Assembly: GCA_041740355.1 (NCBI GenBank)
Contig: JBGSMD010000011.1
Location: 57,462 to 121,461 of the forward strand
DNA length: 64,000 nucleotides
DNA from: Bdellovibrionota bacterium
Lineage (GTDB): Bacteria > Bdellovibrionota_C > UBA2361 > CALJRW01
Reading direction: 5' to 3'
Shown piece after piece: positions 26,338 through 26,902 of this stretch (position 1 is the first letter of the stretch; the number at the start of each line of letters is the position of its first letter). The position numbers and the translations under genes are program-made. The notes under the pieces were generated by a model. It saw only the letters and a program-made list of their open reading frames with translations. It made no database searches and was not told the origin of the DNA.

Positions 26338-26902
26338 AGGCAATTATGTTGCAATCAATCCCCCCCCCCCTCACTCTTGCGGAGCTTCGGAGGATAATAT
26401 TACATTATGCTTTAGGTACCCAACTCGTCGCCTCGCTAGGTGTCACTCAGCATTCCTCCTTTTTATTGTAGATCCAAAAAAAGGGAGCCATGAAGCTCCC
26501 TTTTTATTTTGTATAGGTAATTGTGTTGCGATCCATCCACCTTCGCTAAAGCTTCGGCGGATAATCTTATTTCGATTGCTCGAAATAAAATTACATCATG
26601 CTTCGAGGACACCCAGCTTACGCTAGGTGTCACTCAGCATTCGTAGTCCTTCGGACTACATCATGCCGCTGGGTGTCACCCGATTCTTGCGAATCGAGCT
26701 CCACTGGCGTCATGACTAATCATGACTTTCGCAACACCCAGCTCGTTACCTCGCTAGGTGTCACTTGTCATGATTACATCATGTTTGCTGTGTCACCCAG
26801 ACACTTCGTGTCTAGGCTCCATGCGCAACATGATTACATCATTCCGCTGGGTGTCACCCGATTCTTGCGAATCGAGCTCCACTCACGTCATGATTACATC
26901 AT
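26338..26902. repeat. Hairpin-cassette array downstream of groEL that repeats the groEL terminal ATGATGTAA
   Basis: TTACATCAT-like anchors at 26400, 26591, 26656, ~26716, 26774, 26834 and 26894 (the real stop). GTGTCAC occurs in every cassette. Block 26338-26455 is a degenerate copy of 26516-26642. Confidence 0.9.
26476..26505. terminator. Bidirectional intrinsic terminator (groESL and the convergent gene)
   Basis: A7-GGGAGC-catgaa-GCTCCC-T5. Confidence 0.85.

Follow-up and report, generated by a model that had tools for sequence, protein, structure and literature searches.

Clusters of repetitive extragenic palindromes (REPs), the components of bacterial interspersed mosaic elements or BIMEs, are known to grow by tandem reiteration of a palindrome along with some of the DNA beside it (PMC3733652, in its accessible part). 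Here, we describe an array of this general build in a stretch of 64,000 nt (the window, in what follows) from a Bdellovibrionota bacterium (GenBank assembly GCA_041740355.1, contig JBGSMD010000011.1, positions 57,462 to 121,461), in which five tandem hairpin units of 58-65 nt are found between the stop codon of groEL and the terminator that follows it. Our best reading is a locus-specific tandem array of long imperfect-palindrome hairpins that resembles a REP cluster, and we lean, if cautiously, towards the explanation that it arose by local duplication (through slippage and template switching) and has been kept as the folded 3' untranslated region (UTR) of groESL.

The comparison with REPs/BIMEs is instructive in both directions. 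In the accessible part of PMC3733652, the REPs of Proteobacteria are imperfect palindromes situated close behind coding regions and probably included in transcripts. Their tandem reiteration takes in some of the flanking DNA, stop codons are often provided or overlapped by the repeat ends, and the repeats have been proposed to stabilise mRNA. The groEL array is alike in all these respects. An earlier note on this DNA knew of no described system like it; tandem reiteration of palindromes with their flanks was already known for REP clusters. On the other hand, that same part of the source gives REPs as elements of 20-40 bp with tens to hundreds of dispersed copies, whereas the groEL units are composite hairpins found at one locus. 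The GTAG/CGTC tag of REPs is missing from the groEL units, save for one GTAG at the junction of the fourth and fifth (U4/U5), and no gene for a REP-associated tyrosine transposase (RAYT), the cognate enzyme of REPs, is flanked by groEL units. Hairpins at or across stop codons, with duplication or replacement of gene ends, are also familiar from Coxiella QMITEs, Rickettsia palindromic elements and mitochondrial double-hairpin elements, which are multi-copy and dispersed. Their dispersed copies are evidence of movement, whereas the groEL units are without any other copy. A literature search turned up no description of a hairpin array behind groEL, which is not proof that there is none.

The locus is organised as follows (positions are those of the window, and motifs are written in groEL sense, i.e. 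along the minus strand).

26894..28546, minus strand: groEL coding sequence (CDS), from the list of open reading frames (ORFs); NCBIfam TIGR02348 GroEL, 839 bits for a cut-off of 582; ends ...GGC GGC ATG ATG TAA
26887..26903, minus strand: anchor 0, a small hairpin CAUGAU-GUA-AUCAUG enclosing the final two Met codons and the stop codon
26834..26893, minus strand: unit U1, type A1, 60 nt; two tandem G.A loops and a GCAA tetraloop; end is GCGGAATGATGTAA; 87.5 bits with the covariance model
26774..26833, minus strand: unit U2, type A2, 60 nt; architecture of U1 with four compensatory pair changes and a GAA loop; end is CATGATGTAA
26716..26773, minus strand: unit U3, type B, 58 nt; long apical part GA-G-GUAA-C-GA; end is TCATGATTAG
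26656..26715, minus strand: unit U4, second A1 copy, 94.9% identical to U1 over 59 nt; end is GCGGCATGATGTAG
26591..26655, minus strand: unit U5, small hairpin GUAGUCC-GAA-GGACUAC, then a GUAA-looped type-B hairpin; end is GCATGATGTAA
26476..26500, minus strand: groESL intrinsic terminator, GGGAGC-loop-GCUCCC followed by a U run, able to act bidirectionally

The identities of GroEL and GroES are backed by NCBIfam profiles (839-871 bits for GroEL). Read in gene sense, groEL terminates with GGC-ATG-ATG-TAA-TCATGA, and a repeat search found the anchors containing TAA to end at 26894, 26834 and 26774, i.e. with spacings of 60 and 60 nt. The 17-mer CATGATGTAATCATGAC occurs in two exact copies and one close variant at this 60-nt spacing, the 17-mer of anchor 0 recurring exactly at 26767-26783. 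Every unit closes with a copy of 10-14 nt of the groEL end: the terminus of U4, GCGGCATGATGTA, corresponds to 13 nt of it, while that of U1, GCGGAATGATGTAA, corresponds to 14 nt of the groEL end with a GGA codon that is carried by many relatives. Units start with (A)TCATG and finish with CATGAT, and these two ends pair as an outer stem. In U1, for example, the fold reads AUCAU-GA-CGU-GA-GUG-GA-[9-bp stem, GCAA loop]-GA-CAC-CCA-GCG-GA-AUGAU. Since the units are palindromic and stand in tandem, each junction (CAUGAU-GUA-AUCAUG) is also a small hairpin, the first of which encloses the stop codon of groEL with the two Met codons before it. Three of the junctions have the sequence GTAA, the other two TTAG and GTAG, and GTAG...CTAC is found only at U4/U5, where the small hairpin of U5 (26643-26659) overlaps the end of U4. 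The array therefore comprises three type-A units (U1, U4 and U2) and two of type B (U3 and U5), with GCAA, GUAA and GAA loops and tandem G.A internal loops. As far as this description goes, the earlier note had seen it well: the five cassettes mostly bounded by TCATG..CATGA, the 60-bp spacing of the anchors, the anchor that rebuilds 13 nt of the gene end, the tally of types and loops and the position between stop codon and terminator are all borne out by sequence and folds. It did not contain the hairpin nature of the anchor itself, nor three elements further downstream (a decayed type-B copy at 26400-26458 and hairpins at 26567-26588 and 26535-26565), which are dealt with below.

A T run follows only the hairpin at 26476-26500 and not any of the five units (the terminator scan lists it on the plus strand, and the T run in groEL sense was read from the sequence). 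Because the array lies between the stop codon and this terminator, the only canonical one in groEL sense, it is probably part of the groESL 3' UTR. A coding reading was considered and rejected: the 166-aa ORF that runs through the array (26598..27098, plus strand) is antisense to groEL and has no NCBIfam match.

A reader scanning this locus might think of CRISPR, since palindromic anchors of 15-17 nt alternate with 'spacers' of ~43 nt whose length is near constant. However, the groEL 'spacers' are homologous and self-folding (the first and the fourth are 95% identical), and the anchors, which are derived from the CDS, fall short of the 23-47 nt of CRISPR repeats; cas genes were not searched. 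As for miniature inverted-repeat transposable elements (MITEs), the unit termini, (A)TCATGAC at the start and G(G)CATGAT at the end, are terminal inverted repeats as in such elements, but the multiple insertions with target-site duplication that mark such elements are not seen: no unit was found at any other locus, and the repeated anchor may represent a duplication or, equally well, a co-amplified flank.

Could the array be an artefact, in which a repeat was mis-joined or its copy number inflated during assembly? The 38-nt core common to U1 and U4 does break short-read contigs, and coverage was judged from contigs rather than raw reads. Nevertheless, the contigs of the probable source run span the locus in three overlapping pieces (26100-26695, 26676-26873 and 26854-27250) that are of equal depth (7.2, 8.2 and 7.15) and agree with the window at every position, they break only inside that core, and the assembled order of the units is the sole path using each piece once. 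Moreover, in an independent runoff metagenome, a 197-nt contig runs along 26651-26783 (U3 and U4), from which it departs by three substitutions and two extra bases, and then passes through a variant junction to a B unit that has the long loop; U1-U2 are covered by no contig there. The coding end of groEL in that metagenome differs at 7/228 positions, with no difference listed within U4. The agreement of this contig indicates that the array is present in at least two samples and that the order U3-U4-B has been kept in a relative that is ~97% identical. The array is stable over time, and an assembly artefact is hardly credible.

The folding of the units confirms a structure that is real and statistically extreme. 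Folded alone, U1 to U5 reach -28.0, -29.4, -30.2, -29.5 and -37.1 kcal/mol, with z-scores of -5.2, -6.0, -7.8, -4.2 and -7.8, and for each of them 0/200 shuffles were as good. When the 300-nt 3' flanks of a rough set of ORFs of the genome were folded (545 of 578 long flanks), that of groEL ranked first of 545 at -156.7 kcal/mol, for a mean of -63.0 (sd 14.5) and a runner-up at -127.6. A link between structured flanks and high expression was entertained and dropped, as the flanks ranked next follow genes for CorA, dCTP deaminase, RecA and an outer-membrane efflux protein, which form no pattern. The fold is strongly strand-specific for groEL sense. As RNA, the 446-nt stretch in this sense reaches -214.7 kcal/mol (z -15.0, 0/100 shuffles as good) versus -158.4 kcal/mol (z -9.0) in antisense, and the sense fold of each unit is more stable than its antisense by 5.7-12.3 kcal/mol. 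The unit folds contain 106 Watson-Crick pairs, 12 G-U pairs, five tandem G.A loops and one A.G mismatch, with no A.C mismatch.

Copies that lie beyond the terminator behave differently. The features downstream of the array, some of which are unrelated to its cassettes, are the following.

26567..26588, minus strand: AT-rich 9-bp hairpin with a GCAA loop, -8.4 kcal/mol, z -5.2
26535..26565, minus strand: copy of a REP-like 26-nt hairpin (CCGCCGWAGCTTTAGCGAAGGTGG), a dispersed element and not an array cassette
26400..26458, minus strand: U6, decayed type-B copy behind the terminator; end is GCATAATGTAA
26348..26399, minus strand: ATTATCC...GGATTGATTGC hairpin module with a G11 run, paralogue of the module 26522-26568; two copies in the sister species

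U6 folds at only -14.9 kcal/mol (z -2.4, 6/200 shuffles as good), and its counterpart in the sister species has a z-score of 0.1 (101/200 shuffles as good). Type-B copies outside the transcribed stretch have thus lost their fold, whereas the five units inside keep z-scores of -4.2 or below. Taken with the position of the array and its folding preference for groEL sense, this contrast argues that the sense-strand fold is maintained, and that sense strand is most simply the groESL mRNA. The genome contains three matches to the left-end motif of the ATTATCC module; two belong to this locus, and the third, which lies on a different contig, has nothing beyond the motif in common in the compared sequence. 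Further downstream, a convergent gene encoding 429 aa (24934-26223, plus strand) has no NCBIfam match and a terminator of its own at 26243-26262. On the regulatory side, no CIRCE inverted repeat (the HrcA operator) was found at 28895-29300 or elsewhere in the whole window at up to 3 mismatches, and groESL is therefore probably not under CIRCE/HrcA control.

How the units relate to each other is central to any account of their origin. Types A and B have a common frame, TCATGAC-x-GTGACACCYAGCG-y-CATGAT, in which ~28 extra bases are found before the central motif in type A and after it in type B, and C(U)GGGUG is present in all 3' arms. The type-B arms echo the tail of A1, GACACCCAGC: the 3' arm, GCUGGGUGUC, is exactly complementary to it, and the 5' arm repeats it with one C-to-T change. 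The identity between U1 and U4 extends over exactly 59 nt, with its limits at the junction loops, and includes the identical core of 38 nt. U6 is a mosaic whose left flank is identical to U5 (22/22) and whose apical part is 90% identical to U3 over 30 nt. Judging from these alignments, the cassettes are homologous rather than independent, derived from one backbone and in part inverted copies of their neighbours.

For type A, a covariance model built from the two A1 copies (U1 and U4) detects U2 with 28.3 bits. In an A1/A2 alignment of three sequences, two of them near-identical, that was fitted to the structure, 59/59 lettered cells are paired in 20 pairs, 4 of which are changed on both sides, a number matched by 4/500 shuffles, while sliding the partners by 1-3 columns lowers pairing to 25-45%. 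On this alignment, A1 and A2 are diverged copies with compensatory changes. The earlier note had spoken of different stems that preserve pairing: the pairing stands, but the stems are better seen as diverged copies of one another on this fitted alignment than as separate inventions.

These features bring to mind a second body of work, which reports that template switching in replication is able to create and maintain RNA hairpins, and that perfect or near-perfect stems and apparently 'compensatory' changes are possible in single events in which a neighbouring strand is copied (PMC8794818, in its accessible part). The groEL array resembles such cases in that the A1 tail complements a B arm and the stop-codon hairpin equals an inverted copy of the gene end. 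It differs in that what is accessible of PMC8794818 concerns single hairpins in RNA genes, whereas groEL is followed by a five-unit array with direct copies of the gene end, for which a switch event is proposed only.

Rather than mere protection or accident, the units might have a dedicated RNA function, as repeated protein-binding hairpins (UGGAGC / GGGUGACAC around the tandem G.A) or as precursors of ~60-nt small RNAs. Such a role would fit the GNRA tetraloops (here GCAA three times and GUAA twice) and the tandem sheared G.A pairs, both of which are characteristic of motifs that dock protein or RNA. GTGACAC is present five times in the array, in two distinct structural roles, and on sequence reading alternative folds would be possible through perfect pairing of the A1 tail with the 3' arm of the B unit that follows. 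We nonetheless regard such a function as rather unlikely: the search of an 801-nt region against Rfam 15, at E up to 10, gave sub-threshold chance matches on the terminator region and none on the cassettes, and no partner protein was found. Since neither the sister species nor the rest of the order has the array, any such function would be restricted to this species and its closest relatives.

The distribution of the cassettes was examined at increasing distances, starting with 91 genomes of the order that comprise the genome under study (3.27 Mb, 36% G+C), its sister species (G001) and 89 others. In the genome itself, the 14-mer ATGATGTAATCATG occurs 3 times for 0.08 expected, GTGACACCTAGC 3 times for 0.14 expected and GGAGCTCGATTC twice for 0.14 expected, all at the groEL locus. 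The bare 10-mer CATGATGTAA, with 14 copies for 13 expected, is not enriched, and its other instances carry no unit. With the 616-nt locus as query, blastn-short placed every cassette match of the genome at the locus itself, and the covariance model built from the three type-A units (R2) had 3 matches in the genome, all at groEL. A descriptor of tandem G.A hairpins gave 30 rows genome-wide, versus 17, 10 and 2 in shuffles, and no further copy; its only look-alike lies within an ABC-F coding sequence and was discarded.

Outside this genome, R2 had 0 matches in the sister species and one only in the other 89 genomes of the order, at an E-value of 0.49. Searching the locus by blastn against 41 and then 91 genomes of the order returned, among cassettes, only a 65-nt B copy in the sister species (85%, E 1e-13), the remaining matches falling on the REP-like hairpin or the terminator. 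Wider collections were searched by exact pattern or blastn, which diverged relatives might escape: within these limits, the patterns 'type A plus anchor' and strict type B had 0 and 0 matches among GTDB species representatives, and there were 0 matches in viral contigs (pattern scan) or in phages and plasmids (blastn). One match to a type-B flank pattern in a metagenome scan lies inside a 784-aa ORF and was dismissed as chance. As the units occur nowhere else searched, the array is neither a dispersed REP family nor a recognisable mobile element. The earlier note would have given way to a dispersed REP/BIME family, and on this count it stands, the cassettes being found at the groEL locus only.

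The sister species provides a revealing point of comparison. Its groEL has an identical end with the stop-codon hairpin CAUGAU-GUA-AUCAUG and a 15-nt mini-hairpin (TCATG-ACCTG-CATGA), after which come a hairpin module with a nested REP-like element, the terminator, and then a B copy with an anchor and a second module. Because they are present in both species, type B and the anchor-plus-module pair would be at least as old as the genus, and since that pair lies behind the terminator in both, 'anchor plus module' would have been duplicated before the species split. No cassette units were found behind groEL in the other genus of the family or in 16 further genomes of the order, whose groEL flanks are mostly a plain terminator, a few having unrelated hairpins before it, and TCATG follows the stop codon in 3/19 of the groEL ends found. 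Type A and the five-unit array are known only from the species studied here and its close relative in the second metagenome.

The cassettes themselves are confined to one locus; the genome is rich in small hairpin repeats of other kinds. The 26-nt REP-like hairpin (T)CCGCCGWAGCTTTAGCGAAGGTGG(A) is dispersed (e.g. C63:132351-132376 and C38:36793-36818, C numbers denoting contigs), with 55 matches to a regular expression for its 3' half, mostly the element itself, and 48 blastn-short rows. It occurs in both orientations, often nested in larger palindromes and sometimes as telescoped partial repeats, and copies that are 90-100% identical are found in many families of the order, an unusually wide spread for a REP-type element. 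Among 27 matches examined for orientation, 16 are sense and 9 antisense to the upstream gene, one is intra-ORF and one has no upstream gene, which gives no clear bias. Short repeats are also abundant, CAAAAAGTAATT having 179 copies, TATAGTTATGACAAAA-type words 107-132 and TATCCCTCCGGGGGATA-type words ~50, and these point to further MITE- or REP-like families in the genome.

Two other hairpin arrays deserve mention. Behind a tRNA-Phe gene (C63:108146-108590 in the genome under study, G000), touching hairpins alternately end in CTGGGCA, which is like the tRNA 3' end, and in TGCA. As at groEL, a hairpin chain directly follows a highly expressed gene and units end in the last bases of that gene; unlike at groEL, the sequence is unrelated and AT-rich, the units are much shorter and the gene encodes a tRNA. 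At C63:137004-137221 (minus strand), five touching hairpins follow a gene ending ...GTAGATTAA, in the first of which the last ~15 nt of the gene pair with an inverted copy past the stop codon, the same stop-in-hairpin design as at groEL.

Against this background, the array might have had the same local origin and no function at all, as a neutral by-product of hairpin-prone replication, with palindromes growing through slippage and template switching, in a hairpin-tolerant genome, which we consider unlikely. It would sit well with 12-mers reaching 179 copies, with the 48 blastn rows and most of the 55 regular-expression matches of the REP-like hairpin, with the similarly built array behind tRNA-Phe and with a 12-nt tandem duplication of a gene end at C10:39879 (see below). 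The sister species, too, lives without the array, and strand-biased deamination may explain the G-U bias of the folds. What a neutral by-product leaves unexplained are the four compensatory A1/A2 pair changes with every cell paired, the loss of fold outside the transcribed stretch while five units inside keep z-scores of -4.2 or below, and the lack of any listed difference in U4 in a relative in which 7/228 nt of the adjoining groEL CDS have changed.

The earlier note had favoured iterative site-specific addition over slippage and had suggested that a nuclease, HUH or reverse transcriptase gene might co-occur with the cassettes. Such a process, be it a small non-autonomous mobile hairpin element or an HUH or other enzyme, would insert cassettes serially at the gene end CATGATGTAA and re-create its target each time. 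The terminal inverted ends (TCATGAC.../...G(G)CATGA), the near-constant length, the fact that U1 and U4 are unit-exact copies in non-adjacent positions and the tRNA-Phe array, whose units also end in gene-end sequence, speak for such a process. Insertion of IS200/IS605-type elements occurs 3' of a short target, the elements themselves sometimes terminating in a similar motif, and the genome does encode five Y1 (HUH) transposases of 324-341 aa, in two subfamilies with conserved flanks of their own.

C16:249390-250415, C51:22114-23139, C51:14138-15163, C26 ~27811-28020 and C63 ~206275-206484: Y1 (Y1_Tnp) genes

However, these genes are multi-copy (one is followed by a fragment of a second copy), their flanks are unrelated to the cassettes and they score 59 bits for an NCBI RAYT cut-off of 80; they look like TIR-associated (terminal inverted repeat) tyrosine transposase elements and not REP-associated ones. 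Derivation from IS200/IS605 elements in the manner of PATEs is similarly at odds with these flanks and with the 14 copies of the anchor for 13 expected, no other instance of which is occupied. There are no cassette copies elsewhere in the genome or in any searched collection, no linked enzyme was found, the cassettes are homologous and partly inverted copies of their neighbours, and the unit order has been kept in the relative. A cassette-adding system is therefore not supported, and we hold site-specific insertion to be distinctly unlikely.

The search for gene ends rebuilt elsewhere points the same way. Of ~2,578 ORFs, 11 have their last 10 nt repeated in the 400 nt that follow, with 12 copies in all, compared with 5 copies in an upstream control, and only groEL has at least two downstream copies of its own end, which also speaks against a site-specific process. 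The other cases that were inspected look like chance, save for one, and the notion of genome-wide gene-end rebuilding was abandoned. The exception is at C10:39866-39892, where a 566-aa ORF has its final 12 nt, with the stop codon, in tandem duplicate (AAGACGCCTAAT twice), which is slippage copying of a gene end in its most minimal form. A more adventurous proposal starts from the two gene-end-anchored hairpin arrays of this genome, behind groEL and behind tRNA-Phe, and posits for this lineage a process, strand-specific and so far undescribed, by which heavily transcribed genes would be extended at their 3' ends with hairpin units ending in gene-terminal copies. Candidate mechanisms would be snap-back copying of a stalled 3' end at the terminator, upon transcription-replication conflict, or an enzyme that cuts the anchor hairpin. 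We judge it very unlikely.

Returning to local duplication, which we favour, the steps that we infer are as follows. The seed would have been the small stop-codon hairpin CAUGAU-GUA-AUCAUG; in the sister species, no other structure of this kind is present to this day. The repeated CATGA/TCATG palindromes would then have primed direct duplications that dragged along the last 10-14 nt of groEL, which is why each unit appears to 'rebuild' the stop region, and inverted fold-back copying by template switching would have produced new stems. A unit-sized exchange between identical anchors of 15-17 nt could have put a copy of U1 at position 4. To judge from their position, the five units would be transcribed as the groESL 3' UTR. 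REP hairpins in enterobacteria are proposed to hinder 3' exonucleases; by analogy, the stable hairpins at groEL most plausibly block 3'-to-5' exonucleases and may have been kept for that, and the first of them may also influence termination at the stop codon that it encloses. For REPs, mRNA stabilisation is likewise named as a hypothesis in the accessible part of PMC3733652.

Several observations weigh against this account, in addition to the fitted alignment and the small, redundant sample of the covariation test. They are that (i) simple slippage does not predict the unit-exact, non-adjacent copying of U1 to U4 or the near-constancy of 58-60 nt, the two calling for an extra exchange step between anchors or for a length constraint, (ii) the G-U excess could stem from C-to-T deamination of the non-template strand in a heavily transcribed gene, and not from selection, (iii) with DNA parameters over 315 nt, the asymmetry between strands is smaller (-74.4 kcal/mol in sense versus -61.6 kcal/mol in antisense), (iv) the tandem G.A loops are partly inherited by descent and do not count as five independent observations, (v) the decayed copies behind the terminator may simply be older, (vi) only ~0.05 of the sampled words occur in six RNA runs, transcription of the array being deduced from its position, and (vii) the sister species lives without the array.

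In conclusion, the practical consequence of this finding is modest, as the array is restricted to a single uncultured species with its close relatives, and any effect on groESL expression is putative. It nevertheless carries a warning for annotation, since arrays of this kind mimic CRISPR-like or integron-like cassette systems. If our best reading is true, a long structured 3' UTR would have been built from a stop-codon hairpin and a 7-nt motif through local copying, both direct and inverted, and then retained on the transcribed strand. This would bear on how REP/BIME-like clusters begin before or without a transposase, and on whether selection or template switching is the source of 'compensatory' stem evolution.

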